Below are positions 92-64,000 of a stretch of DNA of 64,000 nucleotides, piece by piece. The first letter of the stretch is position 1. Every line of letters begins with the position of its first letter. The notes beneath the pieces are model-generated. The model ran no database searches. It worked only from the letters and a program-made list of their open reading frames with translations, and was not told the origin of the DNA. A program made the translations under genes and the position numbers. The DNA is from Hormiphora californensis (Eukaryota > Animalia > Ctenophora). The DNA is taken from positions 62,001 to 126,000 of the forward strand of contig CM035351.1 in the NCBI GenBank assembly GCA_020137815.1, given 5' to 3'.

Positions 92-1530
92 GTGTCTTAT
101 GTGGGTGACAGGGGTAACAACTAACACCTCATCCCCCTTTAATACTGCAGGTGTCCTATGTGGGTTAGTGTCTGACGGTGTATAAGGTCCAAATGAGGCA
201 CGGAGCTTTTCTGAATCAGCTTTTCAAGACGAATCCAACGCAACCGGAATTAGCTTTCTATCTTATCGGGAAGGTTCGGTTCACTCACACTCATTTTTAG
301 TCATTTTTGCCGCGCGAGCCAATCAGAGGCCAGAATTTCGAAATCCAGCCCTCTGATTGGCTCGCGCGGCCAAAAATGAAAAAAATGAACCACACCTTCC
401 CGATAAGATAGAAAGCTAATTCCGGTTGCATTGGATTCGTCTTGAAAAGCTGATTCAGAATACCTCCGTGCCTCATTTGGACCTTATACACCGTCAGACA
501 CTAATGTGGGTGACAGGGGTAACAACTAACACCTCACCCCCCTTTAATACTGCAGGTGTCCTATGTGGGTGACAGGGGTAACAACTAACACCTCACCCCC
601 CTTTAATACTGCAGGTGTCCTATGTGGGTGACAGGGGTAACAACTAACACCTCACCCCCCTTTAATACTGCAGGTGTCCTATGTGGGTGACAGGGGTAAC
701 AACTAACACCTCACCCCCCTTTAATACTGCAGGTGTCCTATGTGGGTGACAGGGGTAACAACTAACACCTCACCCCCCTTTAATACTGCAGGTGTCCTAT
801 GTGGGTGACAGGGGTAACAACTAACACCTCACCCCCCTTTAATACTGCAGGTGTCCTATGTGGGTGACAGGGGTAACAACTAACACCTCACCCTCCTTTA
901 ATACTGCAGGTGTCCTATGTGGGTGACAGGGGTAACAACTAACACCTCACCCCCCTTTAATACTGCAGGTGTCCTATGTGGGTGACAGGGGTAACAACTA
1001 ACACCTCACCCCCCTTTAATACTGCAGGTGTCCTATGTGGGTGACAGGGGTAACAACTAACACCTCACCCCCCTTTAATACTGCAGGTGTCCTATGTGGG
1101 TGACAGGGGTAACAACTAACACCTCACCCCCCTTTAATACTGCAGGTGTCCTATGTGGGTGACAGGGGTACCAACTAACACCTCACCCCCCTTTAATACT
1201 GCAGGTGTCCTATGTGGGTGACAGGGGTAACAACTAACACCTCACCCCCCTTTAATACTGCAGGTGTCCTATGTGGGTGACAGGGGTAACAACTAACACC
1301 TCATCCCCCTTTAATACTGCAGGTGTCCTATGTGGGTGACAGGGGTAACAACTAACACCTCACCCCCCTTTAATACTGCAGGTGTCCTATGTGGGTGACA
1401 GGGGTAACAACTAACACCTCACCCCCCTTTAATACTGCAGGTGTCCTATGTGGGTGACAGGGGTAACAACTAACACCTCACCCCCCTTTAATACTGCAGG
1501 TGTCCTATGTGGGTGACAGGGGTAACAACT
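92..1530 (+). repeat. 59-bp tandem array (~19 copies) made of the splice acceptor and first ~31 nt of the APBA exon at 1500
   Basis: Unit is ...cctttaatactgcAG|GTGTCCTATGTGGGTGACAGGGGTAACAACTaacacctcacccc; only the last copy continues into the open exon. Confidence 0.95.
166..503. mobile_element. hAT-like MITE (338 bp) inserted in the 59-bp array
   Basis: ~40-bp TIR TAGTGTCTGACGGTGTATAAGGTCCAAATGAGGCACGGAG, with further inverted similarity inside; 8-bp TSD ATGTGGGT at 158-165 and 504-511. Confidence 0.9.
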
Positions 1531-2629
1531 TGGTCGTAATGGTAAAACAATCCCCTGACAGTACTAGAACAACGTGCCACGTGTTCGATTGTCCACGGAG
1601 CCAGGAGGTTAGTGGTATAACAGGAGGAGTAGGATAGATTACTAACTAGTTTTAATATGTCAGGAGAGGTGACTAACTATTAGTTACTAATTGATAATTA
1701 GTTAATTAATATTTCAGGTTAGGGTGGCAATGAACAGGGCCTTTACCCTGTCCTACAAAGATGTGTTGAAGAGGAGTGGTCAGACAGAGGAATCGCTCAT
1801 GCAGTGTGCATACAGCGAGGTCCTTAGCTCCCAGAAACGTGCCCAGGTATAACATGTGTCTCAATATAACGTGACACATGCACTTATTACTGTTAGTCAT
1901 CGGGTGCCGCAAACTTATTTTTGTATCCCCCCTTATCTACCCCCCCCCCCCATCAGGATGATATAGCAGACGTGTTGGATAGTACAAAACACATTACAGT
2001 TAGCATTATAAAGCGGCCCCAGGAGGCACTAGGACTGTCCCTAATCTCATCTGGACCAGGCTCCATTATACCCACAGTGGTAGTGTCTGGACTCAGACCA
2101 GCCTCCCCTGCTTACAAAACTGAACAGCTGAATGTGGGGAACCAGGTGCTAGAGATTAACGGGAGGTCTCTAGTTGGGCTCTCATTCGAGGAAACTATAA
2201 GTTACATCAGATCCCTCATCTCTTCTACTAAAGTAGAAATGCAGGTTAGTTATGTTATCACAGTAGAACTACTTAGTTGAATTCCCCCTTTCCATACCCC
2301 CCCCCCCTTCTAAAACCACTCCCCCACAGGTAGTGCCAGCCTCTCCTGTGCTAGTGATAGAGCTGATAAGACCAGATCTAAAGTACCCCCTGGGATTTAG
2401 CGTCAAGGATGGACACATCACCACTCTAGTGAGAGGCAGTATAGGAGAGAGGGCTGGTATAAGGGTCGGACACCGGATAATAGCGATTAATGGGGAGTCA
2501 ACAGTGACATTAGACCACGATTCAGTGGCAGGCATTCTTCTATCAGAAACAGGAAAACTCGTTCTAAAAACAATGCAGAGTCAGATATTCAATCACATGT
2601 TAGGACTAGAGGACCCTGATTATTTATAG
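1500..2629 (+). CDS. APBA: X11/Mint/LIN-10 adaptor, last four exons (1500-1607, 1718-1846, 1957-2244, 2330-2629): end of PTB domain plus two PDZ domains; 5' part lies outside the window
   Basis: GT-AG exons join in phase 0 and translate VSYVGDRGNNLVVMVK..TCHVFD..VAMNRAFTLSY (PTB), GLSLISSGPGSIIPTVVV..INGRSLVGL (PDZ1) and IRPDLKYPLGFSVKDG..GIRVGHRIIAING..LKTM..EDPDYL (PDZ2 and tail). This is the Mint architecture. Confidence 0.93.
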
Positions 2630-2674
2630 TCTGAGGTGTGTTTGTCTGTCAAGCTTCTTAGGTGAGGTACCGGT

Positions 2675-2700
2675 TGTGTGTGTGTGTGTGTGTGTGTGTG

Positions 2701-2740
<40 letters not shown>

Positions 2741-2770
2741 TGTATGTGTGTGTGTGTGAGCGTGAGTGTG
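2675..2770. repeat. (TG)n microsatellite in the APBA 3' UTR region
   Basis: Direct reading. Confidence 0.95.
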
Positions 2771-4612: not shown

Positions 4613-4617
4613 AAAAA

Positions 4618-5453: not shown

Positions 5454-5528
<75 letters not shown>

Positions 5529-8500: not shown

Positions 8501-11500
8501 CGTCCATTGCAAAAGTATGTGCCCAATTCGTACCCCAACACAGTGGCTCTCGAAAGAGACGTGTTCAGAAGATCCCAAAGCACCGGAGAAAGCTTCTTGT
8601 GAAGAAAAGAGCACTTGTACGTAAACTAAAAGGTGCCAAGAAAAAAGAGAAAGAGTGCCTGATACAGTGTAAGAGGATTGAGGAACTGTACACTGCACTT
8701 TCACGAATTGAATTAAACATGGCATCTAACATCCACGAAGACAGACTGCGAGAGGAAAGAAAAATCCTGAGAAAGATCAAAGTGAATCCAAAAGCTTTCT
8801 ACACCTACGCAAAGAAGAACAAGGCGTCTAAGTCAGGAATTGGTCCTCTTAAAGACCAAAATGGTGAACTACATGCCGACCCCGCCATCATGGCCAACCT
8901 CCTCCAAGACCAGTACCAGAAGGTGTTTAGTGAACCTATCGAAGGGCCAGTCAATGAGCAGGGACCACCAGGATCCCCTGTTATGAGTGGTGTGACTATC
9001 ACTACTGACACAGTCGTTGAAGCAATCAAAGAACTGTCTCCCCACACCGCACCGGGCCCAGACAAGTTCCCAGCAATAATGCTGAAAAAGTGCAATAGAG
9101 CCTTAGCGCCAGTAATGGCGGAGCTGTGGCAGGCGTCCATACAGACTGGGGATATTGCGTCTATTTTTAAACAGCAGTCAATAGTCCCAATTTACAAGAA
9201 GGATAATAAGAGCTCTCCCGCGAACTACAGACCTGTTAGTTTGACAAGCCAACTTGTTAAGGTCCTAGAGAGAGTCATCCGGAAGCAGATGGTTAACTTT
9301 GTGGAGGAGAACAACCTCCTCTCGCCGGACCAGCATGGCTTTAGGAGTAACAGATCTTGCCTATCACATCTGATCCAGCACATTGAGGACGTAATCGATG
9401 ATTTAGAGAATGGGAAGAATGCAGATGTGCTCTATCTCGACTATTCGAAAGCATTCGATAAAGTATGCCATCTCACCCTTCTAGAGAAACTATCAGGATA
9501 TGGCATCCGGGGAGACCTCCTAGACTGGATTAGAAGCTTCCTGATGGGTAGGACCCATTCAGTCATTGTTGACGGAGTACCATCGAACCCGGGACCCGTA
9601 AGATCTGGAGTCCCACAGGGGACGGTCCTAGGACCACTACTTTTTGTGTTATACATTAATAACCTACCAGATTATGTGCTCCACAGCAAATCGAAGATGT
9701 TCGCTGATGACACAAAGCTACATAAGTCAGTGTCGAGCGAGGATGATCGAAAACTGTTGATGGATGACTTACAAAATGTTTTCAGCTGGGCACTCGAAAA
9801 CAGTATGGAACTCAACGACACCAAGTTCCAATTACTACAACACGGAAAGAACTTGGAACTGAAGCAGCCATACCAACTAACATCCAACATAGTTGTCAGC
9901 GGAAGGGCAGAAGTGAGAGATCTCGGCGTGATAGTTGACCCTGACCTCACATGGAAACCACACATTACACACATAATCAAGAAAGCTAACACCATGGCTA
10001 GTTGGACCTTGAGGCTTTTCAAAACAAGAGATCCTCAACACCTGCTTACTTTGTATAAGACCTATGTGAGATCTCACCTAGAGTACTGCTGTCCAGGTTG
10101 GTCGCCACACCAGAAGGGCGATATACAAAAACTAGAAGCGGTCCAAAGATCATACACCGCGAAAATGGAAGGAATGGACGGGCTCAACTACTGGGAGCGC
10201 TTAAAAGCTCTCAAGATTTACTCCCTCCAGCGACGCCGAGAGCGATATAAGATTCTCTATATGTGGAAAATGTTAAACGGCCTCGTCCCTAAGTCTCCGA
10301 GTATTGACTTTCGAAAGACCATCAGTAGGAGTGGCGTCATTGCTGAACGTCGCCTCGGCAAATCCACTTGTCCCAAGGGTGTCAAAACCCTGATACACAA
10401 CTCCTTCACCTCTTCGGCGGTTGGGTTATTCAACGCAGTCCCAGCCAGAGTTAAGGACCAGTTAACCATCGAAGGTGCTAAAGCGGAACTGGACAGGTTC
10501 CTAGCGAGCATACCCGATACTCCCCCTACTAGAAATTATTCTCCCTCGAACGACAACAGTATTCTGAAGTGGTTGGAGGCAAGGCGCGGTCAGCAGTCCG
10601 TTAGCCTGACGTAGATTCTACCAGATCTTCTACAAAGGTGACTACAAAGGTGACTCCCTCTCTCCCTCCCTCTCTACCTCCCTCTCTCTCTCTCTACCTG
10701 TTGTGTTATCAGTTCCCGTATTTTCTCTTGTAGCATGGTGCATTCTTTCTGGTCTGAAGAGTTGGTTAGAGAGCAGGGGAAGACCCCCTTAACATGTAGA
10801 GTCAGCTTGTTGGGGTTCCATGTCCCACCTAGATACCTATCAGGAGGGGGAGAATTTATCACAAACCCATGATAATATATGTAGAGGCTCACGTGCCCGG
10901 GTTATTCGCTACACGAAACATCTGGAACTCACCCACACACTTCCTCTGTGCTAAGATGACAGTGGTAGTCCACCCCCTTCCCCCACTTACCCACACACTT
11001 CCTCAGTGCTGAGGTGACAGTGGTAGTCCATCAGTAGTAGTGAGTTACTACTAATGTACACCGTGTAGGGCTGCTTCTGACCCACTACACAGAACTTGAC
11101 GCAGTCAACTAGGGCTGCTTCAGGGGGCACTGCCTCTTGCCGGGCCTCTAACATCGCCTCAGGTTCAGTGGCCTGATGTAGGGGAGGGGAGGGGGGTGTT
11201 AGGGTTTAGATATCAGATATTGGGAATGATATTGTCATAACAGCTGTAACTCACCCTAGCCATGGCCTGCTGCCCCCCCCCCCCCCCCAATATTGGTATT
11301 ATGTATAACTCACCCTAGCCATGGCCTGCACACCCCCCCAATATTGGTACTATGTATAACTCACCCTAGCCATGGCCTGCTGTTCTAATTGAGCCACTGC
11401 CATCTGTATCATATGGGCGTGTTGAACAAGGGCCTGCTCCAATATCAACTGGGCCATCTTATCTTTACTCCCTGAGGCATTGTGTTCCTGAATGGCTTTC

Positions 11501-13846
11501 TCCAATGCAGCCTGATTTATTAGAGCATTCCGTATCATCTCATTCTCTAACACTGCTTTCTGCAGTATAGCTGTTTCATCCATTTGTGCAGCTGCAGCAC
11601 TAGCAGCCTTCCTCTTCTTCCTCTCCTTCACCGTCTCTTTCCCAGATGAAGCCCCCTGCACTGCCAATATCTCCTGCTGGATCTTATAGAGTGCTTCCTG
11701 TTGTAGTTGTGCCTGTAACAGAGCATCTTGTTGCAACCACAGCATCTGTTCCTCCTCCTTGCTACTCCCTCCCCCTCCCTGCTTCTGTTGCTGTTGCTGT
11801 TGTTGCTGTTGCTGTTGCTGTTGCTGTTGTTGCTGTTGGACGAGCGATGCCAGTTCTGCCTGTTGTTTCAATATCTCTGCCTCAGCAGCTGAGTGTTGTT
11901 GTTGCTGTTTCGATGGCTGTGCTGCCGCTGCTGCAGTCCCTGCCTGTTCTATCAGGGCCTTCTCCAACACTAGCCGCTCTGCCTCCGTTAGCTCCTCATT
12001 AGAGAGTAGTTTCTGTGCCAGGAAGGCTACATGATGTTCTGAAGAGGAAGATGAGGTGCCGGGCTGTTGGTGGTGGAAGTGGTGGTCTGCAGTGGGGGCC
12101 GGTACTGGTATGGGGTCTGGGGGTCCTGGGGTTGTGGCTGTCGCACCAACTACTGGGGGTGTGGTGGGTGTTTCAACTTGCTGCTGCACATCAGAACCAC
12201 TAGCAGAGCCCTCCTGGGGAGATAGAGGTGTGAGATGATACAGGGTACATCTCAGGGATATAACTAGTTTAATAATTAATAGGTTTAACCACGTGGAACA
12301 AGGGCAGTATAACTCACGTGTGATACATGTGATGAACTCTCATCTGGCTCACTCTCCATATCATCCTCATCCTGAGAGAGAAGGAGGGGAGAGGGGGTTA
12401 GTAGCTCGGGAGAGGGGTTAGGAAGAGAGGGTTAGGAGAGGTTTGTGAGACAATTTGTTGCTGATTAGACTCCCAGTACCTGTTTCGTAGTATGTAATGT
12501 AATGTGTGATGACGTGTTTCCAGTCATTCTAGTGGCAAGGAGAGCCACAATGGCATCATGGATGAGTTGGTGTTGTGAACTTGGGGTGATCCTCTCAGGT
12601 ACCCCTGGTTCCATGATATTCCTGGTGCCTTTTCGAGGATGTTGTTGTTTGTTGGATGGTTTGTTGGATGGTTTGTTCTTTAGTGGTATTTTTAGTGCCA
12701 GTTTGGGTGAGGATTTCATGGTGTTTGGTGTAGTTAGTTGAATGCTCTGTGTACTGTACTTCTCTACTATTGTGGGTCGCACTGTGGGTCGTACTGTGGG
12801 TCGTACTGTGCTTTTACCCTTTACCTATAATATGATGTGAGGTTTAATTCCTGACTCCTGTGAGATTGTTCATTAGTTATGAAACACATGCATCCTGGCC
12901 TCTAGCCAATATGCCCTCACTCCCGAGATTCCATTACCTGAGTACCATGGGGGGAACCACCCCCGTCACTTCCTGTTGTACTACACACTGTACTACTACA
13001 CAGTCCCCTAGTAATACTAGTCCCCTAGTCCACCCTTATTGTCATTACCTGAGTGCCGTGAGGGGAACCACCCCCGTCACTTCCTGTTGTACTACACACT
13101 GTACTACTACACAGTCCCCCCTCATTACCTGAGTCCCATGAGGGGATCCACCCCCGTCACTTCCTGTTGTACTACACACTGTACTACTACACAGTCCCCC
13201 CTTATTACCTGTGTCCCATGGGGGGAACCACCCCCGTCACTTCCTGTTGTCTTGTGACCATGCATCTGCAACCACTTGTTTTTATACCAATCTAACTTCT
13301 TTCCCTCGTATTTCACTGTAGTCCACCCACAGGCATTCTTCTGGTCTGGGTTCACCAGTCTCTTGCAGTGAGATGCCCAGGCCGAGGGGGTCGGAAAGAT
13401 CAGGTTCATATCCTTCCATTGTACCTGCCCATCCTCCAGCAGGTCCCCCTCGAATATGTTACTGAAATACTCCATCTTCAACACACCGCTACCTGGGAAT
13501 GGGGAGGGATGGTTACAACTCCATCTTCAACACACCGCTACCTGGGAATGGGGAGGGATGGTTACAACTCCATCTTCAACACACCGCTACCTGGGGGACA
13601 CAAGGTTACCATGATGGTGATTGGGAAGATCATGGATGATGAAACATAGTCATATGTCTGTCTGTCTGTATGCCACGTTACCTGGCTTGAGAAGCTTGTC
13701 CTTTATCAGATAGGAAAGATGAAGGCTCCGACCCCAGCCAAGCTTCTTCTCACTTCGTCTCCTACTCTTCCCCTTGTTAGAAGAAGGGGGCGGTGGGTTC
13801 TGGCCCCTTTGAGCCTGTTTTTCCAGGGTTTTCCGTAGAAGATCAT
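4618..13846 (-). CDS. MPND: MPN domain-containing protein (RAMA domain, Gln-rich linker, JAMM/MPN+ domain); ~10 exons, approx. 13846-13682, 13492-13209, 12824-12480, 12371-12317, 12213-11374, 11172-10991, 10837-10698, 5409-5232, 5047-4983, 4843-4618
   Basis: RAMA-like: LSYLIKDKLLKPG|SGVLKMEY..FPTPSAWASHCKRLVNPDQKNACGWTTVKYEGKKLDWYK. MPN: LLLMDYHCHLSTEEVCG|YLGGTW and VIGWYHSHPTSSPRPSQHD (JAMM HxH..S..D). The start at 13846 needs one extra G (ATGGAT), which is an inference. Confidence 0.9.
5663..7540 (+). CDS. LINE ORF1 with PHD finger, CCCH-type zinc fingers and an internal 20-aa Ser/Thr repeat
   Basis: CPVC..CLCC..HTDC..CTKC (PHD); CRYFESNRCKYG..CPNYHP, CRRF..C..CKYYH, CSKS..C..CRLTH; 60-bp repeats at ~6715-7235. 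Confidence 0.85.
   Translation: MNDLQKDLLCRVKFSVNSSEHSSSVKAVLDLILSNEGALPTNSNKPRKEDLSATLDAINDFVGEFMTGRSEIWHSNADTKGTMALLISSFFALNPAPSCPVCKTPPPQTLSLGTDCLRCLCCGLPAHTDCYKGVNPKKGIYYICTKCNCDPRRNIVTHKMAVTSNRAAQTVAPAYTTDLKEPPHAGTIITDKLQTQVQSSSSTEDTHSQYSVTTDDKEQTIKDTSHPPNPANSYRRNRTFDRSLIICRYFESNRCKYGITGGSCPNYHPPYCRRFRNYGPCEKLGCTNSDEECKYYHASLCSKSLMGRRCTNKACRLTHIRMSPTTATRVALLPTPPSPNHPNVPIPSSLPTTASSNSSNTTCVNTSSSVPPSTTASPNCSNTTCVNKSSSVPQSTTASSNSSNTTCVNTSSSVPPSTTASPNCSNTTCVNKSSSVPQSTTASSNSSNTTCVNTSSSVPQSTTASPSCSNMDCVAAASSVPQSTTASPSSSNMDCVAAASSVLSPTTASSNGGNMDCVTAASSVPLSHTYVAANGNMGPEKVPIQLPTTAPGPNNIPLDFLRLLENLTTTARLIMGSQFQFNTIPNYQVPDLYTQQPLPMNMYYQHPVHPHHAMGHQYPLGKANM
7585..10614 (+). CDS. LINE ORF2, APE endonuclease plus reverse transcriptase (CR1 type)
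   Basis: ITESWL, GVYRPP, TGDFNLP, LDLVLTN, SDH (APE); NYRPVSLTS, LDYSKAFDKV, GVPQGTVLGPLLF, MFADDTK (RT); LEYCCPGWSP and YWERLKAL (CR1 C-terminus). Confidence 0.96.
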   Translation: MFLLNAHGINPGFSSHKVKLQQIREWVATSHFKIPFFVITESWLNETVFDAEISFEGFTTYRADRVERNQGGVVIYINSDIPVTDVKIFSSTYCEAASVYMETANTVLSGVYRPPASYSDPTRRCPVDHFQSCLQGIESFIKKHEPANVILTGDFNLPMVNWDNLEIKSGLNTLATERQSAELLLSLSERLFLHQVVHSPTRMDKNILDLVLTNNDHLIHDVDVVRTEWSDHDLVKVTLKTQEISGILVESEEPKLYEPQSEFDNFNFNKVTQETWEELNIALHKIDWTDVTSAKDQNEAWEKFRSSIAKVCAQFVPQHSGSRKRRVQKIPKHRRKLLVKKRALVRKLKGAKKKEKECLIQCKRIEELYTALSRIELNMASNIHEDRLREERKILRKIKVNPKAFYTYAKKNKASKSGIGPLKDQNGELHADPAIMANLLQDQYQKVFSEPIEGPVNEQGPPGSPVMSGVTITTDTVVEAIKELSPHTAPGPDKFPAIMLKKCNRALAPVMAELWQASIQTGDIASIFKQQSIVPIYKKDNKSSPANYRPVSLTSQLVKVLERVIRKQMVNFVEENNLLSPDQHGFRSNRSCLSHLIQHIEDVIDDLENGKNADVLYLDYSKAFDKVCHLTLLEKLSGYGIRGDLLDWIRSFLMGRTHSVIVDGVPSNPGPVRSGVPQGTVLGPLLFVLYINNLPDYVLHSKSKMFADDTKLHKSVSSEDDRKLLMDDLQNVFSWALENSMELNDTKFQLLQHGKNLELKQPYQLTSNIVVSGRAEVRDLGVIVDPDLTWKPHITHIIKKANTMASWTLRLFKTRDPQHLLTLYKTYVRSHLEYCCPGWSPHQKGDIQKLEAVQRSYTAKMEGMDGLNYWERLKALKIYSLQRRRERYKILYMWKMLNGLVPKSPSIDFRKTISRSGVIAERRLGKSTCPKGVKTLIHNSFTSSAVGLFNAVPARVKDQLTIEGAKAELDRFLASIPDTPPTRNYSPSNDNSILKWLEARRGQQSVSLT

Positions 13847-20192: not shown

Positions 20193-23040
20193 TCAATGAA
20201 CAGTAGTACCGACAGTTTTGAATCCTTCACCGTGCCTACTCTTGAAGCTCCTCTTGTAGAGACTGTAGCCCAGGAGACAGGGAACAAAAGCAGCATTGGC
20301 AAAGGTAGCGAACACGTAGTGACTGGAAACGTTGTATGCGAAATTACTCTCAGAGTAATAGAAGTAAATGTTGAATTTCCATCTTTCACGGGGACTCTCT
20401 GAATCATCGCTCCTAGGGGGAACAAGATCAGGGAATTAGTGGGGGGTTGACTGTATCCACTCTCCTGTAGTGGGAGACACTAGCGTGGTACGCGCAAAAA
20501 AATGCGTGCCACACCAATTTCGTTTTTCAAAAAACACGCAAGAAAAAGTTTTTCAACATCGACTTTTCACGTTTTGGCTCATAACTCCTTTTCCTGATAA
20601 GATAAAGACTTCGATGGGGCTTGAAATTCCCTTTCCAACGGTATGCAAACGATTTCTGTAGCTCATCAGGAACCGGAGATGATCAATTATGATAATACCG
20701 AAGGAAACTTACGCGGTTATTATCATAAGTGATCATATCTCCGGTTCCTGATGAGCTACCCCCAGAGGTGTTTTACTAACCAGTCAGGTATAAGGTTGAG
20801 TAGTGCGAACACAGCAGAGATCCACACCAACAACCAGAAGGAGTAGGTGATGATAAAGAATATCGTCAGGACCAGCATTGTGAAACTTGCCTTGTTCTCT
20901 GCCCTAGTTATCCTACCCCAACAACCTATATATAGGGACATGGGGTGTTACCCATGAAGGGGACATGGTCGGCGCCGACCCGATCAAAATGGGGTCTGGC
21001 GGTGCCAGCTCCAGACAGTTTGGGGGATATCTTACCACGTATTTTAGAAGACAGTGTAGAGGACATTCTCTTGATATGTCTCTCAAACAATGATCCTCTT
21101 CTATGTCTCTCACTCAGCTGGGATATTGATACCATCCTCTTCATCTTAGACAACTGAAACACGTGGCTGGGTTTTAATTGGTTACTTAGACAACTGAAAC
21201 ACGTGGCTGGGTTTCAAGTGTTGAAGAAACACGTGGGTTTTAGGGGGTTCAATGGTTGAAGAAACAAACAACAACACTTAACTAGATTGCCTAATTACCA
21301 TCAGTACGACTCAGTGCTCACATAACAATATCACAGCATTACCTCACAGAGGACCACAACAGAAAGGATGATGTTGAGTATGATGGGCACCACCAGATAC
21401 ACTATAACCCCGAAGAAATAAAACACCAGACTCTCAATAGGGTCCAGTATGTTGGTCATCGTGAAACTACACAGGTAGGATGTGGGGTAGAGTTTTAGAT
21501 AGGGCCGGTAGCAATTCTTATCTCCAAACTGAGGGGGGATAGACTCTATTTAATATAGTAGTAGTAGTTTGTAGTAGGGGAATAGAGTACTGTCAGCACG
21601 ATACCAGTCTCAGAACTGTCAGAAGAGTTGTTACTCAATAACAGAAGAGTGGAACTGACTACAGCTAAGAAGAGTTGTTACTCAACAATCGAATAGTGGG
21701 AAGGGTCACACTGACTACTCTCGTCTCCTGAGAAGTACTGACAATGTCTACCTACCACAAATGGTAGAAGTGTCAGCAGGGTAATGATTGAAGTGTGTGT
21801 TAGTATCCAAATCCAATAATGACGTTTCTTTACTCGGTGGATCCGGTAGGGTTTGCAGATGAAAATATACCTGGGAGGAACATTGGTCTGGATGCCGTTA
21901 GAGATGGGGTAGACACGATCATATGCTATAGGGAAAACAGACAAGAAGGAATCTCTACATGGGTGTATTTCCTTGCTTCCTAACCCGGAGAGAGGGGGAG
22001 AGAGAGGGTCGAAAATCAACTGAAGACAAGCTGTATATCCTTGAGAGAGGGAGCACATACCTATCAACCTATCCTAACTGTATTATATCCTGGCACAAAC
22101 CTATCGACAGTTAGAAGTAGCATGAGCCAAACAATGAGACGAGAAGTGATGTTGAATACAGCACCAGTAAAGTTACACATCACCAACTCAAACAGATGCA
22201 AACTGAAAAAGGGAGGGCGGCTAGTATAGAGACTCAGATATGATACCCCCCAAGATCTACCATCTCCTTAAAACAAGAAACACTTGTTGAGTAAGGGGTG
22301 AGACAACAAAGAAACACAGCAGTTGGGGATTGGGGTACTATTTTCCCCCTTATATTTTCTATTTGGTATTTTGGTACCTACTTGCAGGTGGTGTTTCTAG
22401 TTGAAATTGAAGGAGCCTCAGTAGTTGGTATCAACATGGCAGAGGTTGTGACAGTTTCAAAGGGGATCTCAGTTATAAACGGAGTTGTTTCTGTCACAGT
22501 CTCGCCCAGTATAACCTCAGAGCGGTGGGGTTCACTAATCCTCAGTGTGTACAGTTGATGTAACATATAGGGCATACACAGTAGCCCCGTACACAGCCCA
22601 GATATTGTTAGGGAGAGGTAGATTGGAGTCTGAAACATGCAGGGGGTTAGGTAACAATGTCAGGACAATATGGGCAATCAAAATTTCAGAATCGTAAAGA
22701 TTTTGCCGAGACTGTTTGACGAATCACAAATTCAATCGAGAAAAGCCAATCAGAAACTCAGAATCTAGATAACTGGTACAGAGGAACTGCTAGTGTGTTA
22801 CCCCACACAATCATAACAACAATCAACTAGTACCTGGATAGCTCTGGAGGTAGTGATGATGTTGAGGAGTCGATAGGAGACGTATCCATTACCTAGCACT
22901 GCCACTAAACACAGCCAACACCCGAATATGAAGAATGCCCACTCAGTGGAGAGAGAGGACCGAGAGAGCTGTATAAAGTTGATCTGGTGGGTATCCGATA
23001 CAGTATCCGATACAGTATCCGATACAGTATCGTTAGACAT
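20193..23040 (-). CDS. Rhodopsin-like (class A) orphan GPCR, ~8 exons
   Basis: TM1 CLVAVLGNGYV; TM2 YLSLTISGLCTGLLCMPY; TM3 LIVWLMLLLTVDR|YIFICKPY (DRY); TM4 WIWILTHTSIITLLTLLPF; TM5 YLVVPIILNIILSVVVL; TM6 FTMLVLTIFFIITYSFW; TM7 YVFATFANAAFVPCLLGY. Some exon boundaries are approximate. Confidence 0.8.
20479..20758. mobile_element. Truncated palindromic MITE in the last GPCR intron
   Basis: Hairpin tagctcatcaggaaccggagat..atctccggttcctgatgagcta at 20660-20758; shares the ccggttcctgat motif with neighbouring MITEs. Confidence 0.6.
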
Positions 23041-32428: not shown

Positions 32429-32461
<33 letters not shown>

Positions 32462-36728: not shown

Positions 36729-36765
<37 letters not shown>

Positions 36766-36845
36766 TTGGGGGGGGTTTTTTGGGGGGGGGGGGGGGGGGG
36801 GGAAAAAAAAAAAAAAACCCAAAAAAAAAAAAAAAAAAACCCCAA
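28030..36845. other. Low-quality, homopolymer-inflated sequence around a scaffold gap (100 N at 30741-30840); not interpretable
   Basis: Long runs of G/C/A/T with no codon or splice structure, worst at 32150-33110 and 35280-36845; typical of untrimmed read ends. Confidence 0.85.
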
Positions 36846-37245
36846 ATTCATACCAACAGGTGGTCCGGGATATAATACTAATTATAAAATGCGTTATGAA
36901 CATGAAATTCTCCCTAGAAAAAGAGAGGAGCCAGGTCGTGGTGGAAATGAAAAAGAAAGGGAGAGGTTGGAGTGGGAATTGTGGTGAAGGGAACTGGAAA
37001 GTTCCATGGAAAGTTTCCTGCGGTTCGAATAAATCTAATAACTCGATAGTTACGGGGTTTCGCGAAAAAATGTTAACATTCTGATAAACACAATTATAAT
37101 ATATTAATATTGCAGATTACCAATAGCGTCTATAAATATAACGGTTTAAAAATCCACTTATCTTGTCTCTCACATTACAATCCTATTATATCTGTTAGAG
37201 TCGGACCCGGATTTACCGGGTCTGACTATATCTCAACAAGTGCAA

Positions 37246-43230: not shown

Positions 43231-43345
43231 CTAGGAAGTTAGTATGAACTAATTGAGAAACAGTACCTGTATTAGGAAGTTATAATGAACTAATTGAGAA
43301 ACGGAGCATGCAACTAAATTACTTTTATCTAATCGACCCACTCAC

Positions 43346-45499
43346 CCCCTGCCCTGGTGCCCCAGCAACACCAGACACTAACCGTTCGAAGTCCTCCTGG
43401 ATTGGTGGTCGTCTGGTGGCCCTCTTGTTGCTATCTGTGAAGCTATAGAACTGTGTCTGATCAGCTCCAGGTGCTGTTAGGTCTGCATCCTCCCAGACAC
43501 TGCTATCTTTAGTGGAGTACCGACACCACCTCAACTCAGCTGTGTGAAGTGGGTTAAATTTCGGGTCTGAGACTCTCAGTTTGTTCAGACACTCAGACTG
43601 AGAGTCTGAACAAATCAACTTTGGAAAACTTTGGAAACACAAATTGATCAATATCTAGTTGGGACTGATCAACACCAGTAAAACAGCTCCAGCAACAGAT
43701 AACCTGTCAACTTGTAACTTGTAACTTGTCAACTCCTTACCAGATGTTGCTGCGGGAATGTTGTGGATAGAGGGAGGGAGGGCAGGCGGAGAGTTCACCC
43801 TGACATTAGCATTGGTTCTCTGAAACAAGGTAGTAAATCAGACAGATATACAATCAGACTTAACTACTAGATCTTGTTCCCAACAATTAACACCCAAACA
43901 AACAAACAAACAAACAAACAAACAAACAAACAAACAAACAAACAAACAACCAAACAAACAAACAAACACCCAAACAAACAAACAAACAAACAAACAAACA
44001 ACCAAACAAACAAACACCCAAACAAACCAAACAACACTCAACACCTCGTGTGTGAACCTACCAAGGGTGTGAACCTAGAGGGTGTCATTGCAGTTCCAGT
44101 GTTAACAACATCTCTCCTCTGGTGGGTGACCTGATAAACGGGTGCTACCTCCTCCTCTACAGTAGGGGTATATTGCTCCCTAACTACTGTACAATATTCC
44201 TGCTCATAGGAGGGCTCAGCAACAACTACCGGTGAGGGTTGCTTGGTGGGAGGGGAGCGGGGAGGGGGTTCGTGGTAGACAGAGGAACAATCTGTATAGG
44301 CCGTCTCATCGATCACTGGAGGAACGGGAGGGGGTTAGAACTAGGAGCAACAAGGGGGATGTTGTTAGAACTAGGAGCAACAATAGTAGATTATAGATAG
44401 TTCAAATCTTGACATTAACCTCTTCACTTATGAAACTAAGCGGTATAAGAATAAGTCTAAAGTCGTTACTTACAGTATTCCCCGGTTAGATGGTTAAATG
44501 TGTCATTAGTTTTGTGTTGTTCCTCGGTGTTGGGAGAGATACAGGAAATATCCTCCAGCGGCGTTTTTAGGGACATGTCGTATAGTGTCTGAGAGGTGGT
44601 GAGGGGTGAGAAGGGGTAGTGAGACAGGGTCGAACATTGCAAGGTGGTAGTTATTAGTCAACTCAGACCTTACTACATAACAACAAGAGGGGGGCAACTA
44701 AAAACAGGAAACGAGCTCAGTATACAGTAGTATACACCAAAAGAAAGGATTAACTGCAACCAAGGGCATGTACAAGGGGGGGGGGAGGGGGCACCGCAGT
44801 AACCCACCAGCAGGAAATGCACTAATATAGTACACATATATATTCAATAGTACAATATTACCACAGGCACCACTTCCAACTGTGTGTGGGCCCAACAAAG
44901 GTAGCTTTGAACAAGAACAGCTATAGCCATGATTAGGACTGACCTACTACTAATTATTAGTTAATTAATTACCTTTGTAGGACTGGTATCGTGCACGTTA
45001 TCTCCCTCTTCCTCTTCTCTCAGGGCCTCTGTGGTACTAACGAACATCCCTTCTCCACCCCCACCTCATATAGAAATATACCGGAATATTATATTGCGTT
45101 TATGTGTGTGTCTGTAACTTGTGTAAACACTCGTGGAAAGACACATAGGAAAGACATACTAAGGCACATTTTATATGCAGTGTGGTGAATTATTGAATTA
45201 CAACATTAAGAAATGTGTAAATTTACTACTAATATAACATATGTCCGGTAGTTACCTATTGTTTCATCTAAACTACTACTAATATAACATGTCTACACTA
45301 CACTAATATAACGAATAACATGTCCCGGGACTGTACCTATTGTTTCATCGGCCTCCTCCTCCTCCTGATCCTTAGTAGGGGTATATCTACCAGGAGTGAA
45401 GGCCTGGGTCATAGCAGTATCGTTTAGATTAGGAGGGATACTTTTAAATGTATCATCTTCTATTGCAGTCATCTCCTTTGTATCTACAGGACTTTCATT
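43346..45499 (-). CDS. Exons of unknown function (acidic and Tyr/Pro-rich), probably the 5' part of the PARG-like/WWE gene
   Basis: Open GT-AG exons, e.g. 45499-45338, ~45064-44973, ~44316-44062 (YHEPPPRSPP..YEQEY), ~43819-43741, ~43607-43346; mostly phase-compatible. Confidence 0.55.
43895..44035. repeat. (AAAC)n microsatellite
   Basis: Direct reading. Confidence 0.95.
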
Positions 45500-55086: not shown

Positions 55087-55158
<72 letters not shown>

Positions 55159-58100
55159 GAGAGAGAGAGAGAGAGGGGGGGAGAGGGTTTTTTAAAGCAT
55201 CTGATTGCAAAAACTGCTAAGGAACAAGGTGTTTATTATAAAGGAACACTATTTAAGTCCCTTTGATCCTCCTTAACATCAGAAGCTGACGTTCTCCATG
55301 TAACAGGATCGGAGAAAACAGCATTCCCAGGACTCCAACCACTCCCATTCTCTGAACCACCCCCCCCCCCCCCCTAGCAACCCCCTAGCAACCCCCATAG
55401 CAACCTCCCAAGCAACCCCTCCTTAACATCAGCAGCTGACGTTCTCCATGTTACAGGATCGGAGAAAACAGCATTCCCAGGACTTCAACCACTCCCATTC
55501 TCTGAGCCACTCCGAGTGTTTCTAGTGCCCCACACACACTGTGACCCAGGTACGGGTGGGAAACACATGTCATTCAATAGTCAATTATAGTCAATGTTGT
55601 GAGAGAAATAAGGGGATATCTTCTCGCACCACACGGTATAATAGAGGCTAGTCACGGCGTGCCCGAGGGTAGTTTAACATTTGTTTGAGTGCACACCTCC
55701 AATTCCGGTTGTAACTGGTCGGGAAGACCTCCCTGAAGGTCGTGGCGGTGCGGGAAAAATAGGGTAGACCTGCTGCGGCTTCAGAAAATTGAGAAAAAGA
55801 TAGCTATCTTTTTTTTCACTTTGAAAATAAGACGTTTTTTATTAAAAGATCCTTGATCAGTGAGATACGGTTGTCCCCCACCTATTTTTTGACGTAGAAT
55901 CGAATGCCGTTGAAGTCAAATCTCTAAAATGTTGGCAAAATGGAGAAAATCACGTTTTTAGGTGTTTTTTGGTGAAAAAAGCGTTCAAACTGGTAGTAGA
56001 TGATGGGATAGAGTCCCAAAAATATCATAAATCGATTTTTTGGGTCTTTTTCGCCCTAGGAAAAGAGTTTCATGAAAATCTGGTACAACGCCTATTCTCC
56101 GTTTGCTTTCAAAGAAGCTGAATATTGCTCTAATTTAGCCAATTTTGAAGAAAAGGCGTCCAAAATGATACCAGTTGACAGGATAGAGTCCCAAAAACGT
56201 GAAAATCATCAATTTTAGGCATTTTATACCCTAGAAACAAATGGACATGGTGGTCGAATGATATTTTTTATCTCGGTAGGCCTCTGAAGTATGTGGAAAT
56301 AGCCACAATGTAGAGATTGTGGTAAATTAATGTGAATAAACGTTTACCAAACCCACTTTAGTGGGCTTCTGGATTATGCAAGAGCCACTCTTCTGGGTTT
56401 GGTAAACGTTTATTCACATTAATTTACCACAATCTCTTCATTGTGGCTATTTCCACATACTTCAGAGGCCTACCGAGATAAAAAATATCATTCGACCACC
56501 ATGTCCATTTGTTTCTAGGGTATAAAATGCCTAAAATTGATGATTTTCACGTTTTTGGGACTCTATCCTGTCAACTGGTATCATTTTGGACGCCTTTTCT
56601 TCAAAATTGGCTAAATTAGAGCAATATTCAGCTTCTTTGAAAGCAAACGGAGAATAGGCGTTGTACCAGATTTTCATGAAACTCTTTTCCTAGGGCGAAA
56701 AAGACCCAAAAAATCGATTTATGATATTTTTGGGACTCTATCACATCATCTACTACCAGTTTGAACGCTTTTTTCACCAAAAAACACCTAAAAACGTGAT
56801 TTTCTCCATTTTGCCAACATTTTAGAGATTTGACTTCAACGGCATTCGATTCTACGTCAAAAAATAGGTGGGGGACAACCGTATCTCACTGATCAAGGAT
56901 CTTTTAATAAAAAACGTCTTATTTTCAAAGTGAAAAAAAAGATAGCTATCTTTTTCTCAATTTTCTGAAGCCGCAGCAGGTCTACCCTATTTTTCCCGCA
57001 CCGCCACGACCTTCAGGGAGGTCTTCCCGACCAGTTACAACCGGAATTGGAGGTGTGCACTCAAACAAATGTTAAACTACCCTCGGGCACGCCGTGTAGT
57101 ATTATATACAAACCATTACAGGAGCTATACTATTATTACTATTTTCTGTAGTAAACAACCAATCAGAACTCGTTATTTAGGTCATGTGACTGGTTATCAG
57201 CCAATCAGGGACCAGTATTTCCACACTATTTTCTGTAGGCTGGTAAACAACCAATCAGAACTCGTTATTTAGGTCACGTGACTGGTTATCAGCCAATCAG
57301 GGACCAGTATTTCCACACTATTTAGGTTGGTTGGAGACGTTTCACTGGTACTACGAGAAAAAAGTGAGATCCATCCTAACGTGGCTGTACATCAAGGCCT
57401 CGGATACACCCGATTTCAAATACATGTATGCTGAGGTAAACCTTACAATTTATCAGTACTCTCCCTCCTCTCGCTAGTGGTATTTGTTCAATGGTCTTCA
57501 CCGTATGGGTACATGATAACATGCAGTTACCATGGTAACACTGCAACTGGTAACATGCAGTTACCATGGTAACACTGCAACTGGTATTATAATGGTTACC
57601 ATGTGGTACTGAAGCTGTAATGATTACAATTTCAGGTGTCCTTCTTCAGTGTTTGGTGGGATGAGCAGGAGGATGATGTGAGGGAGGGGATGAAAAAGTG
57701 AGTTCAATAGAATCAAGATCATGTTTAAAACATTATACACATGTTTTCCTACTGCATAGTACCGTTACATCTTGGTATCGAAGACACCTCACACTCAGGC
57801 CGCTTCGCCACACTCAGGCCGCTTCGCCACACTCAGGCCGCTGCGCCAAACGAAGGCTACGAAGCGGCCGCATCGCGGCCTTCGTTTGGCGCACTTCGCG
57901 CGCCGGTAAGGGAGGGGTAACTTCGTTACCAACGTTATATCTATGATATATATATACGTTGTATATAGGCCCAGAGACGGCAGACGACAGTCACAGAAAT
58001 CTGTATAATCCAGTTAATAAGAACAAATTATAATAGAGATAATATGCAGCATGATGCAGCATGTAGAAACCATAGCTTAGGTGAGGTTTCTACTACGTGG

Positions 58101-59897
58101 TGTGTCGACACGGTCCTTGCACTGTTACTGCAGCCAAGCCATACAGGGCGGCCCAGTCTATCATGTAGAGTTGGGAGGGACAAACTCAGAGCTCAGTCTA
58201 TCATGTAGAGTTGGGAGGGACAAACTCAGAGCCCAGTCTATTATGTAGAGTTGGGAGGGACAAACTCAGAGCCCAGTCTATCATGTAGAGTTGGGAGGGA
58301 CAAACTCAGAGCCCAGTCTATCATGTAGAGTTGGGAGGGACAAACTCAGAGCCCAGTCTATCATGTAGAGTTGGGAGGGACAAACTCAGAGCCCAGTCTA
58401 TCATGTAGAGTTGGGAGGGACAAACTCAGAGCCCAGTCTATTATGTAGAGTTGGGAGGGACAAACTCAGAGCCCAGTCTATCATGTAGAGTTGGGAGGGA
58501 CAAACTCAGAGCCCAGTCTATCATGTAGAGTTGGGAGGGACAAACTCAGAGCCCAGTCTATCATGTAGAGTTGGGAGGGACAAACTCAGAGCCCAGTCTA
58601 TCATGTAGAGTTGGGAGGGACAAACTCAGAGCCCAGTCTATCATGTAGAGTTGGGAGGGACAAACTCAGAGCCCAGTCTATCATGTAGAGTTGGGAGGGA
58701 CAAACTCAGAGCCCAGTCTATCATGTAGAGTTAGGAGGGACAAACTCAGAGCCCAGTCTATCATGTAGAGTTGGGAGGGACAAACTCAGAGCCCAGTCTA
58801 TCATGTAGAGTTGGGAGGGACAAACTCAGAGCCCAGTCTATTATGTAGAGTTGGGAGGGACAAACTCAGAGCCCAGTCTATCATGTAGAGTTGGGAGGGA
58901 CAAACTCAGAGCCCAGTCTATCATGTAGAGTTGGGAGGGACAAACTCAGAGCCCAGTCTATCATGTAGAGTTGGGAGGGACAAACTCAGAGCCCAGTCTA
59001 TCATGTAGAGTTGGGAGGGACAAACTCAGAGCCCAGTCTATCATGTAGAGTTGGGAGGGACAAACTCAGAGCCCAGTCTAGTGTCCTGCACTGGTCTCCA
59101 ACAGAAGTTTCAAAGTGTTTCTCAAAGAGCTGTGTTTAGTAAACACGCGGCTCACATTGTACAGATTTTCCAGTGTGTGTTTTCCGTTCTAATACGTCTA
59201 ACACATGATCATTGATCAAACACTGCTGTTGGCAAGCCCAGCTGCATACTCGGAGTAGTAGTAGTATTGATAAACGTATTCCACACTAGGCTGGCTCTAG
59301 AAGGGAGGTTTGAGTTTGTCCAGGGAGGCTGGGTCCAGACTGACGAGGCAAACACTCACTACTTCGCGATGACCAATGAAATGTTCGATGGACATCAGTG
59401 GCTCAGCGAAAACTTCCCAGGTATAGCAACACTAGCCTCTCCCAGCCACCAGGTATAGCAACACTACTAGTATTACTAGCCACCGCCCTGATCCCCCGGC
59501 CGACAAGCTCAGCTTTTTCCAAAATCTAAAATTGAAAAGTACCGGTGTAATAAATTTCCCGATTTTCAGAGGCTATACCACGGTCTGGTTGGGCTATTGA
59601 CCCGTTTGGACTGTCCCCTGTGATGGCATATGTCAATAAAATCTTCGGTCTCACTGCTATGCACATTCAGGTGATTCCATTAGCTAGATCTAAGAGGTGT
59701 TCCAGGTCCCACTAGAAGGTGTGAAGGGAAACCAGCCCCACACCTGGTTAGACTTCTTTGTGTTAGTTCTTTGTGATATAAATCCACCTCTCTCCCTCTC
59801 TTTAACACACTATTCTTGACTTAGAGAGTCCACTACTCCATAAAGAATCATCTGGCAAAAACTAGAAACCTCGACTTTCGCTGGAGACAATCGTGGG
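53781..59897 (+). CDS. MAN2A: Golgi alpha-mannosidase II (GH38), exons 1-9: 53781-53891, 54357-54515, 55022-55067, 55457-55549, 57326-57435, 57636-57697, 59290-59420, 59570-59670, 59825-59897; continues beyond the window
   Basis: Type II anchor [22 protein letters not shown]; [15 protein letters not shown]|WLETF, YMYAE|[40 protein letters not shown]|RVHYSIK..FRWRQSW. All exon phases are consistent. Confidence 0.93.
53920..54350. repeat. Intronic (CCCCCTAGCAA)n-like minisatellite; shorter tract at 55358-55420
   Basis: Direct reading. Confidence 0.9.
55653..57096. mobile_element. 1444-bp foldback element with ~700-bp near-perfect arms, CACGGCGTGCC termini and a 4-bp TSD
   Basis: Arms ~55653-56354 and ~56394-57096; TSD TAGT at 55649-55652 and 57097-57100. 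Confidence 0.93.
57766..57940. mobile_element. Degenerate MITE with internal 19-bp repeats and a hairpin
   Basis: Imperfect TIR ttggtatcgaag / cttcgttaccaa; (cacactcaggccgcttcgc)x3; gcgccaaacgaaggc..gccttcgtttggcgc. Confidence 0.55.
58151..59080. repeat. 40-bp intronic tandem repeat, ~23 copies
   Basis: Unit GCCCAGTCTATCATGTAGAGTTGGGAGGGACAAACTCAGA. Confidence 0.95.
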
Positions 59898-60149
59898 GTG
59901 AGTGTGAAACAATTTTTGCAAAGTATTAGAACCAGATGGACCTCACATGGTGCAGAATTATCAAGGGGATCCATGGTTAACTGCCAGTCCAATGTTTTCA
60001 CCACAGTGCGAAGAGGACGGTCTTATATGAGACAAAGGGATCCTGTCCAACTGTCCAATGCTCTCATCACACTGTCATGGTTTCTAGGGGTTTACCATGT
60101 ATAAGGTCTACATGGTGCACAAAACCATTGGTTTCTTGCTATAATAATT

Positions 60150-63100
60150 TCCCCATGTTTTCAGATAAGACAGGTATAACGTCTTGCTATAACTCCATAT
60201 TTTCAGATAAGACAGGTATCACTGATATCCACAATAACAATTCCCCCATGTTTTCAGATAAGACAGGCATAACGTCTTACCATAACAAATTCCCCATGTT
60301 TTCAGATAAGACATATTCCCCCATGTTTTCAGATAAGACAGGTATCACAGATATCCACACACATCTTATTTTCAGATAAGACAGGTATCACTGATATCCA
60401 CACACATCTTATTTTCAGATAAGACAGGTATCACTGATATCCACACACATCTTGTTTTCAGATAAGACAGGTATCACTGATATCCACACACATCTTGTTT
60501 TCAGATAAGACAGGTATCACTGATATCCACACACATCTTGTTTTCAGATAAGACAGGTATCACAGATATCCACACACATCTTGTTTTCAGATAAGACAGG
60601 TATCACAGATATCCACACACATCTTGTTTTCAGATAAGACAGGTATCACTGATATCCACACACATCTTGTTTTCAGATAAGACAGGTATCACTGATATCC
60701 ACACACATCTTGTTTTCAGATAAGACAGGTATCACTGATATCCACACACATCTTGTTTTCAGATAAGACAGGTATCACTGATATCCACACACATCTTGTT
60801 TTCAGATAAGACAGGTATCACTGATATCCACACACATCTTGTTTTCAGATAAGACAGGTATCACTGATATCCACACACATCTTGTTTTCAGATAAGACAG
60901 GTATCACTGATATCCACACACATCTTGTTTTCAGATAAGACAGGTATCACTGATATCCACACACATCTTGTTTTCAGATAAGACAGGTATCACTGATATC
61001 CACACACATCTTGTTTTCAGATAAGACAGGTATCACTGATATCCACACACATCTTGTTTTCAGATAAGACAGGTATCACTGATATCCACACACATCTTGT
61101 TTTCAGATAAGACAGGTATCACTGATATCCACACACATCTTGTTTTCAGATAAGACAGGTATCACTGATATCCACACACATCTTGTTTTCAGATAAGACA
61201 GGTATCACTGATATCCACACACATCTTGTTTTCAGATAAGACAGGTATCACTGATATCCACACACATCTTGTTTTCAGATAAGACAGGTATCACTGATAT
61301 CCACACACATCTTGTTTTCAGATAAGACAGGTATCACTGATATCCACACACATCTTGTTTTCAGATAAGACAGGTATCACTGATATCCACACACATCTTG
61401 TTTTCAGATAAGACAGGTATCACTGATATCCACACACATCTTGTTTTCAGATAAGACAGGTATCACTGATATCCACACACATCTTGTTTTCAGATAAGAC
61501 AGGTATCACTGATATCCACACACATCTTGTTTTCAGATAAGACAGGTATCACTGATATCCACACACATCTTGTTTTCAGATAAGACAGGTATCACTGATA
61601 TCCACACACATCTTGTTTTCAGATAAGACAGGTATCACTGATATCCACACACATCTTGTTTTCAGATAAGACAGGTATCACTGATATCCACACACATCTT
61701 GTTTTCAGATAAGACAGGTATCACTGATATCCACACACATCATTGTTTTCAGATAAGACAGGTATCACTGATATCCACACACATCTTGTTTTCAGATAAG
61801 ACAGGTATCACTGATATCCACACACATCTTGTTTTCAGATAAGACAGGTATCACTGATATCCACACACATCTTGTTTTCAGATAAGACAGGTATCACTGA
61901 TATCCACACACATCTTGTTTTCAGATAAGACAGGTATCACTGATATCCACACACATCTTGTTTTCAGATAAGACAGGTATCACTGATATCCACACACATC
62001 TTGTTTTCAGATAAGACAGGTATCACTGATATCCACACACATCTTGTTTTCAGATAAGACAGGTATCACTGATATCCACACACATCTTGTTTTCAGATAA
62101 GACAGGTATCACTGATATCCACACACATCTTGTTTTCAGATAAGACAGGTATCACTGATATCCACACACATCTTGTTTTCAGATAAGACAGGTATCACTG
62201 ATATCCACACACATCTTGTTTTCAGATAAGACAGGTATCACTGATATCCACAATAACAATTTCCTGTTTTCAGATAAGACAGGTATCACTGATATCCACA
62301 CACATCTTGTTTTCAGATAAGACAGGTATCACTGATATCCACACACATCTTGTTTTCAGATAAGACAGGTATCACTGATATCCACACACATCTTGTTTTC
62401 AGATAAGACAGGTATCACTGATATCCACACACATCTTGTTTTCAGATAAGACAGGTATCACTGATATCCACACACATCTTGTTTTCAGATAAGACAGGTA
62501 TCACTGATATCCACACACATCTTGTTTTCAGATAAGACAGGTATCACTGATATCCACACACATCTTGTTTTCAGATAAGACAGGTATCACTGATATCCAC
62601 ACACATCTTGTTTTCAGATAAGACAGGTATCACTGATATCCACACACATCTTGTTTTCAGATAAGACAGGTATCACTGATATCCACACACATCTTGTTTT
62701 CAGATAAGACAGGTATCACTGATATCCACACACATCTTGTTTTCAGATAAGACAGGTATCACTGATATCCACACACATCTTGTTTTCAGATAAGACAGGT
62801 ATCACTGATATCCACACACATCTTGTTTTCAGATAAGACAGGTATCACTGATATCCACACACATCTTGTTTTCAGATAAGACAGGTATCACTGATATCCA
62901 CACACATCTTGTTTTCAGATAAGACAGGTATCACTGATATCCACACACATCTTGTTTTCAGATAAGACAGGTATCACATGATATCCACACATCTTGTTTT
63001 CAGATAAGACAGGTATCACTGATATCCACACACATCTTGTTTTCAGATAAGACAGGTATCACTGATATCCACACACATCTTGTTTTCAGATAAGACAGGT

Positions 63101-64000
63101 ATCACTGATATCCACACACATCTTGTTTTCAGATAAGACAGGTATCACTGATATCCACACACATCTTGTTTTCAGATAAGACAGGTATCACTGATATCCA
63201 CACACATCTTGTTTTCAGATAAGACAGGTATCACTGATATCCACACACATCTTGTTTTCAGATAAGACAGGTATCACTGATATCCACACACATCTTGTTT
63301 TCAGATAAGACAGGTATCACTGATATCCACACACATCTTGTTTTCAGATAAGACAGGTATCACTGATATCCACACACATCTTGTTTTCAGATAAGACAGG
63401 TATCACTGATATCCACACACATCTTGTTTTCAGATAAGACAGGTATCACTGATATCCACACACATCTTGTTTTCAGATAAGACAGGTATCACTGATATCC
63501 ACACACATCTTGTTTTCAGATAAGACAGGTATCACTGATATCCACACACATCTTGTTTTCAGATAAGACAGGTATCACTGATATCCACACACATCTTGTT
63601 TTCAGATAAGACAGGTATCACTGATATCCACACACATCTTGTTTTCAGATAAGACAGGTATCACTGATATCCACACACATCTTGTTTTCAGATAAGACAG
63701 GTATCACTGATATCCACACACATCTTGTTTTCAGATAAGACAGGTATCACTGATATCCACACACATCTTGTTTTCAGATAAGACAGGTATCACTGATATC
63801 CACACACATCTTGTTTTCAGATAAGACAGGTATCACTGATATCCACACACATCTTGTTTTCAGATAAGACAGGTATCACTGATATCCACACACATCTTGT
63901 TTTCAGATAAGACAGGTATCACTGATATCCACACACATCTTGTTTTCAGATAAGACAGGTATCACTGATATCCACACACATCTTGTTTTCAGATAAGACA
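60150..64000 (+). repeat. 43-bp tandem array (~90 copies, running off the window) made of the acceptor and the start of the next MAN2A exon
   Basis: Unit cacacacatcttgttttcAG|ATAAGACAGGTATCACTGATATC; joined to the phase-1 donor at 59897 it reads WRQSW-D-KTGITDI, the expected continuation of mannosidase II. Confidence 0.9.

Follow-up and report, generated by a model that had tools for sequence, protein, structure and literature searches.

The stretch of DNA analysed here, 64,000 nt of the Hormiphora californensis genome (the window), raises the question why exon edges recur together with their splice sites inside the adjacent introns, and why these copies depart from the working exons mainly at silent sites. 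The exon models of the five genes concerned were all built by hand, and a few junctions in poorly conserved parts are best guesses. Every intron of the APBA, MPND, PARG/C2/WWE (PARG below) and MAN2A models shows AG/GT and the exons join in frame, while the GPCR model is in frame with AG/GT up to one frameshift in the sixth exon. Compared with their ctenophore orthologues, the PARG model reaches 56% over 1184 columns and the MPND model 48% over 851 columns. One MPND exon is 100% identical to a Pleurobrachia bachei protein over 94 amino acids, and a PARG exon matches a Mnemiopsis leidyi protein with PARG, C2 and WWE domains. Pfam supports PDZ, C2, WWE and Glyco_hydro_38N; 7tm_1 stayed below the cut-off. 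The MPND stretch 12480-12824 comprises 115 in-frame codons with good splice sites, lacks a clear counterpart in the related protein P0002 and is possibly a cassette or lineage-specific exon. The assembly itself has flaws, namely frameshifts within some exons and junk at about 28-37 kb, where a 120-N gap lies amid homopolymer-rich, unpolished sequence (28000-37000) that is unfit for interpretation.

An anchored, codon-blind scan was applied for comparing each of the 95 annotated junctions with its own intron, a score of at least 11 being taken as a copy. Copies were detected at 15 of the 95 junctions, roughly every sixth exon edge (8 donors, 7 acceptors), with tandem units of 31-150 nt. In the control, 0.12% of 3368 comparisons of a junction with an intron of a foreign gene reached the same score. 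The terminal MAN2A array with its 90 copies represents a sixteenth duplicated junction (Table 1). A preliminary description of this DNA had reported about 15 such junctions, and the blind scan confirms this. The description had also stressed that acceptor copies lie upstream and donor copies downstream of the real exon; the placement is correct and has no value as evidence, being the geometry of any tandem duplication that crosses a junction. AG or GT is present in every printed copy, which the scan itself in effect required. As also claimed before, the copies run into stops or lose the frame: none of 38 copy splice sites would yield an in-frame, stop-free product. Two gapped look-alikes were missed by the blind scan (near 43275, with one non-synonymous change, and near 57239, with one synonymous change). 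Purely intronic duplications are common as well, 11 of them having units of at least 30 nt, and a duplication at 53922-54079 that had been considered as a donor copy proved to be intronic once the first exon of MAN2A was placed.

Table 1. Duplicated exon edges in the window, with the differences between the copies and the working exon
Gene and junction	Coordinates	Strand	Real edge	Copies	Exon differences
APBA acceptor array	89..1499	+	exon 1500-1607	18; intron end plus up to 31 exon nt; 59-nt unit; palindromic insertion 166-503	1 synonymous (97), 1 non-synonymous (1171)
MPND donor	10927..11030	-	10991-11030	one, 40 exon nt; different intron flank	3 synonymous, 0 non-synonymous
MPND donor	11247..11382	-	ends 11365	two (16, 18 exon nt)	0
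MPND donor	12932..13250	-	13209-13250	three of 42 exon nt	6 synonymous site-alleles, 0 non-synonymous; silent variant set differs from copy to copy
MPND acceptor	13469..13595	-	exon from 13492	two of 24 exon nt; intron flank of outer copy diverged	0
GPCR acceptor	21145..21214	-	exon from 21153	one, 9 exon nt	0
GPCR donor (counter-example)	21621..21699	-	ends 21682	one, 18 exon nt	1 synonymous, 3 non-synonymous
PARG/C2/WWE acceptor	40652..40949	-	exon from 40684	at 40769 and 40873 (33, 29 exon nt); additional short copy near 40805 (by eye)	4 synonymous, 0 non-synonymous
PARG donor	40994..41085	-	ends 41047	one, 39 exon nt	0
PARG acceptor	41686..41746	-	exon from 41695	one, 10 exon nt; 31-nt unit	1 synonymous, 1 nonsense
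PARG acceptor	41963..42080	-	exon from 41997	one, 35 exon nt	1 synonymous
PARG donor	42150..42260	-	ends 42231	two of 30 exon nt; 37-nt unit	2 synonymous
PARG donor	45253..45349	-	ends 45337	one, 13 exon nt	0
MAN2A acceptor	55268..55510	+	exon 55433 (or 55436)	at 55283, 78 exon nt	3 synonymous, 1 non-synonymous or intronic depending on the AG used
MAN2A donor	59417..59466	+		one with 4 exon nt	0
MAN2A acceptor array	60134..64000	+	beyond the window	90, including 78 identical 43-nt units	among copies: silent at 3 clear sites, 1 ambiguous

Between copies and working exons 22 synonymous and 6 non-synonymous unique site-alleles were counted in 424 exon nt, the two look-alikes and the variants of the terminal MAN2A array being left aside. 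The reading frame of that array was deduced from the phase of the preceding exon and from MAN2A sequence. The synonymous share thus amounts to 79%, compared to 23-28% calculated for neutral decay, a range that matches the quarter assumed at the outset (p 6e-9 at a transition ratio of 2, range 6e-10 to 5e-8). A stricter null lets the working exon accumulate silent changes during the decay of the copy and predicts 37-44% synonymous changes (p 5e-5 at a transition ratio of 2, range 9e-6 to 2e-4). Leaving out one junction at a time, the worst case was p 5e-6 for neutral decay and 2e-3 for the stricter null, and with one draw per junction 6 of 9 junctions had a synonymous majority (p 0.011 and 0.11, respectively). 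Inclusion of the look-alikes near 43275 and 57239 gave 23:7 (p 6e-9). Expressed as rates, the copies show a dS of 28/147=0.19 and a dN of 6/483=0.012. The original hand count of about two dozen synonymous changes, including first-position CTG/TTG and TTA/CTA exchanges, holds; its estimate of about two non-synonymous changes was too low. The GPCR donor copy at 21634 accounts for three of the six, and the change in the MAN2A copy at 55283 counts as non-synonymous only when splicing takes the upstream AG of a NAGNAG acceptor. At 6 of the 15 junctions the copies are free of any exon difference. The data support the conclusion that the copies carry sequence once under protein-level selection and that their divergence is of allelic scale; this silent bias is statistically firm and apparently unreported.

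Five of nine matching sequencing runs were compared with the window, the comparison being confined to the PARG gene among the five; run X9 had no useful coverage of it. Contigs of X1 span 40411-40768 without a difference and 41057-42004 with one difference, and a contig of X5, a second sample, spans 41051-42000 with one difference. The acceptor duplication at 41686..41746, for example, is found within single contigs of both runs. X1 may be the source of the assembly, and so X5 serves as the independent witness. Since real edge and copy share single contigs, the PARG copies within these spans exist, with their differences, in short reads, and where checked, in PARG, the boundary duplications are not an assembly artefact.

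The same contigs bear on haplotypes. In 507 readable exon nt X6 differs from the window by 22 synonymous changes and 1 non-synonymous change (dS 0.21, dN 0.0025), and the dS of the copies is close to this value. Among the haplotype differences listed (those of X6 together with 24 exonic ones among 40 of 158 entries) synonymous and non-synonymous changes stand at 39:8, which is indistinguishable from the 22:6 of the copies (Fisher p 0.76). In X6 the duplications at 40994 and 41686 are absent, and a private 25-nt duplication (41294-41318) crosses the acceptor at 41312; X5 has a contig without 40832-40910. At 40735-40781 depth rises to 8210 in X6 and 4014 in X5, compared to single-copy values of 541 and 373 (about 11-15x), and X5 reaches 1978 in bin 42198-42385, at a PARG donor, compared to about 370-490 nearby. 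Joints and depth in X5 and X6 thus reveal copy numbers that differ between haplotypes. X5 and X6 carry a common sample label and different haplotypes; instead of an allele, X6 may represent another, diverged population or a cryptic species. One X7 contig (depth <3) shows four X6 letters in one exon and window letters in the next, within about 250 nt, which is a weak sign of one gene pool and could be chimeric. Over most of the 1.6 kb at 41051-42668, X1 and X5 are nearly identical to the window, about 4% of the exon bases are different in X6, and the flanking exons are highly polymorphic; a recent sweep or a shared long haplotype is possible. Two metagenome scans found no alleles of the PARG exons.

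Splice-site use was read from X7, which we guess to be RNA. Two spliced joints, 40684/41047 and 41695/41799, each resting on single contigs of depth <4, cover three duplicated junctions, and at all three splicing takes the exon-proximal donor or acceptor and bypasses the copies. For these three junctions this bears on the earlier question of which copy is used in RNA. We also looked for a duplicated AG/GT pair that splices out a new intron; the RNA joints lie at the original sites, and among the 38 copy sites none is viable.

Similar repeats are known from amphioxus as mirages; the founding paper is said to be that of Canestro 2002 on Adh3, and somatic instability has reportedly been observed for the Adh3 mirage. 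According to the sections available to us, amphioxus mirages occur in Adh3, the globins BflGb6 and BflGb9, troponin C and PGBD5 (PMC3087553, PMC3902484), with tandem units across donor and acceptor boundaries, haplotype-variable copy number and normal splicing. Four features recur in the window: units of tens to about 160 bp at donors as well as acceptors, a repeat unit that spans the exon-intron boundary (at the 15 junctions and in the terminal array), copy number that differs between haplotypes, and use of the authentic site in mRNA (3 of 3 covered junctions, X7 depth <4). On these grounds the repeats of the window are mirages, apparently extending them to a further phylum and to a high density; unlike in the amphioxus cases, 15 of 95 junctions are affected in a single window of a ctenophore. 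How mirages are generated is called unclear in the globin paper, which puts forward a way in which introns could be gained; its main text, in which the word 'synonymous' occurs 0 times, contains no discussion of silent-site bias or allelic origin (PMC3087553). Human boundary-spanning minisatellites (F7 intron 7, CBS intron 13, 6-16, lamin B2, PDGF) likewise reiterate donor sites, which remain unused since splicing selects the most upstream one; unlike the window, they are isolated loci in a low-diversity species and, in the parts of the source at hand, come with no allelic signature (PMC1557585). In the Rogers model of intron gain by tandem duplication the duplicated segment also contains AG/GT, but there an exonic duplication creates a new intron (PMC3265369), whereas the duplications of the window lengthen introns that already exist, and no new one was found. 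The preliminary view that the structure was undescribed therefore falls, given mirages and the human minisatellites, and survives for the silent signature, for which we found no published account. Our literature search returned no paper in which boundary-spanning repeats are examined for synonymous bias or an allelic origin, and none that reports such repeats from ctenophores; most subscription journals lay outside its scope, so this absence is not proof. The accessible portions of the Hormiphora genome paper do not mention boundary repeats either; they report 3.2% heterozygosity and non-coding DNA rich in indels (PMC8527503).

Very probably, the exon parts of the copies are former working alleles. 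In X6 the joint 41685/41717, which fits equally at +10, is reproduced by one of four letter combinations, the silent letter of the copy with the sense codon of the real exon; indirectly, this implies that the silent variant of the copy at 41686 would be the working exon edge of X6. Furthermore, an X6 exon contig ends at 40682, positions 40683-40687 are uncovered (depth 558.9 = 625.4 x 42/47) and depth piles up on the copies, which suggests that near 40684 the working edge of X6 fits the copies of the window better. Both arguments are indirect, as the contig comparison did not report differences in the outermost 30 nt or so of a contig. X7 has four differences in 40546-40682, and the overlap of two contigs places at least one of them in 40653-40681. 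A by-eye look at the amphioxus BflGb6 alignment (PMC3087553, supplement 4) showed that the working exons of two haplotypes differ at 5 silent sites, and that, within the stretch shared by copies D3-D5 of haplotype 1 and the exon of that haplotype, 6 sites differ, all of them silent; at three of these 6 the copies have the letters of the working exon of haplotype 2. Other BflGb6 copies carry several amino-acid changes as well. The original proposal that each copy was taken from a functional allele is thus well supported, by the silent bias at allelic scale, by duplications that vary between haplotypes and, indirectly, by the X6 joint at 41685/41717.

As to how the repeats arose, we lean towards unequal exchange between homologs, the species being highly polymorphic and each copy being the working exon edge of another allele. 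Repair or recombination would engage the homolog within conserved exon sequence, copying would then cross the splice site into intron that diverges between alleles, and the strand would rejoin out of register, so that two edges from different alleles come to lie in tandem. Out-of-register joining may follow homolog-templated repair of breaks. As long as the exon-proximal site is used, as seen at three junctions in low-depth RNA contigs, the event would be tolerated, and further unequal exchange could expand, contract and mix the array faster than point mutation decays it; presence and copy-number differences were observed, and the rate is our inference. No function of the copies is implied. 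The premise, that strong divergence between alleles directs recombination to conserved exons, has a precedent in hypervariable Schizophyllum commune, where crossovers favour exons; these differ from the present case in being equal crossovers, and the available sections report no duplications (PMC4209137).

Among the other explanations, birth on one chromatid by slippage or sister exchange appears possible, if less likely. The copies would be identical at birth, and later allelic recombination or gene conversion would swap the working edge or refresh the copies. The silent bias would still be allelic and arise after birth; duplication followed by allelic conversion gives the same bias as exon-initiated exchange. 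The copies identical to the exon at 6 of the 15 junctions, which count against birth between homologs, fit this origin, as do the simple tandem units (46 nt at 40994, 37 nt at 42150) and the RNA contig that switches haplotypes within about 250 nt. At the MPND copies at 10932, 12937 and 13590, the APBA copy at 92 and the MAN2A copy at 55283, however, the inner and outer intron flanks are distinguished by indels or are entirely different, whereas the exon parts align gap-free. Slippage on one chromatid produces no such divergence at birth, and flanks divergent up to the breakpoint need out-of-register joining of two alleles or long divergence; absence from X6 at 2 junctions points to youth, though X6 may have lost the copies. 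Because the flanks differ up to the breakpoint, the exon parts are gap-free and the duplications appear younger than the allelic divergence, we favour birth between homologs. What speaks against the favoured origin, apart from the identical copies, is the GPCR copy at 21634, in which 3 of 4 changes are non-synonymous, and the weak enrichment at junctions, which exon-initiated exchange predicts and birth on one chromatid does not require. In a hand catalogue of 25 duplications with units of at least 30 nt in 48 bounded introns (the APBA and terminal MAN2A arrays, whose introns run off the window, were excluded), 14 span a junction, compared to 10.7 expected with transposons and microsatellites masked (p 0.12) and 5.5 unmasked (p 2e-4). 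With a median intron length of about 140 nt, overlap with a junction is frequent by chance alone. Purely intronic repeats within 20 nt of an exon edge number 11 of 21, compared to 7.3 expected (p 0.045). Targeting of duplication to junctions is therefore no more than suggested.

The GPCR copy and the nonsense change at 41723 would suit old duplications that decay neutrally while the working exon drifts at silent sites, yet such drift should leave roughly two in five changes synonymous (37-44%) and not the 79% observed (p 9e-6 to 2e-4), so we consider it very unlikely. That copies are sometimes spliced in, translated and held under protein-level selection would account for the synonymous bias and for the splice dinucleotides, but the lack of any in-frame, stop-free product from the 38 copy sites and the skipping of copies at all three covered duplicated junctions (depth <4) make this highly improbable. 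Equally improbable is an assembly artefact, caused either by the joining of two haplotypes at exon sequence common to both or by errors in polishing. The junk at about 28-37 kb, the exon frameshifts and a probable base error at 41086, where X1, X5, X6 and X7 all carry another letter, are in line with it; single short-read contigs of X1 and X5 that span edge and copy with 0-1 differences (in PARG) and the duplication that X6 carries elsewhere contradict it.

Conceivably, and we advance this tentatively, hyper-polymorphic animals routinely build short tandem duplications from both homologs, by repair that begins in conserved exon, overruns into unalignable intron and ends in out-of-register joining, so that high diversity would generally produce mirages as a by-product, mostly at exon edges. 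Silent differences offer a built-in reporter of the copy source, by which homolog- and sister-templated duplication can be told apart genome-wide with existing assemblies and population reads. If the both-homolog reading is true, heterozygosity itself drives intron growth and splice-site reiteration, and introns are a readable archive of extinct and living exon-edge alleles as well as a steady source of intron growth. In practice, reads are mismapped to such copies, which can give rise to false synonymous SNPs and false exons.

Several other repeats were observed in the window. The insertion at 166-503, within the second unit of the APBA array, is a near-perfect 338-bp palindrome flanked by an 8-bp duplication, which resembles a non-autonomous hAT-type element. 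Large intronic inverted-repeat elements lie at 55640-57095 (about 1.4 kb, in MAN2A, by eye) and at 299-503, and further transposon-like palindromes at 18.2-20 kb and 50.6-53.7 kb. Two LINE-like elements, presumably CR1/L2-like and RTE-like, are located in introns, at 5640-10620 (MPND; two long ORFs) and at about 46400-49800 (first PARG intron), both oriented opposite to the host gene. One and the same C-rich repeat motif of 11-12 nt immediately precedes two different MAN2A acceptors (53959-54352 and 55369-55419), in the latter case between the copy and the real edge. An intronic minisatellite at 58151-59080 consists of 23 copies of a 40-bp unit that matches no annotated exon edge.
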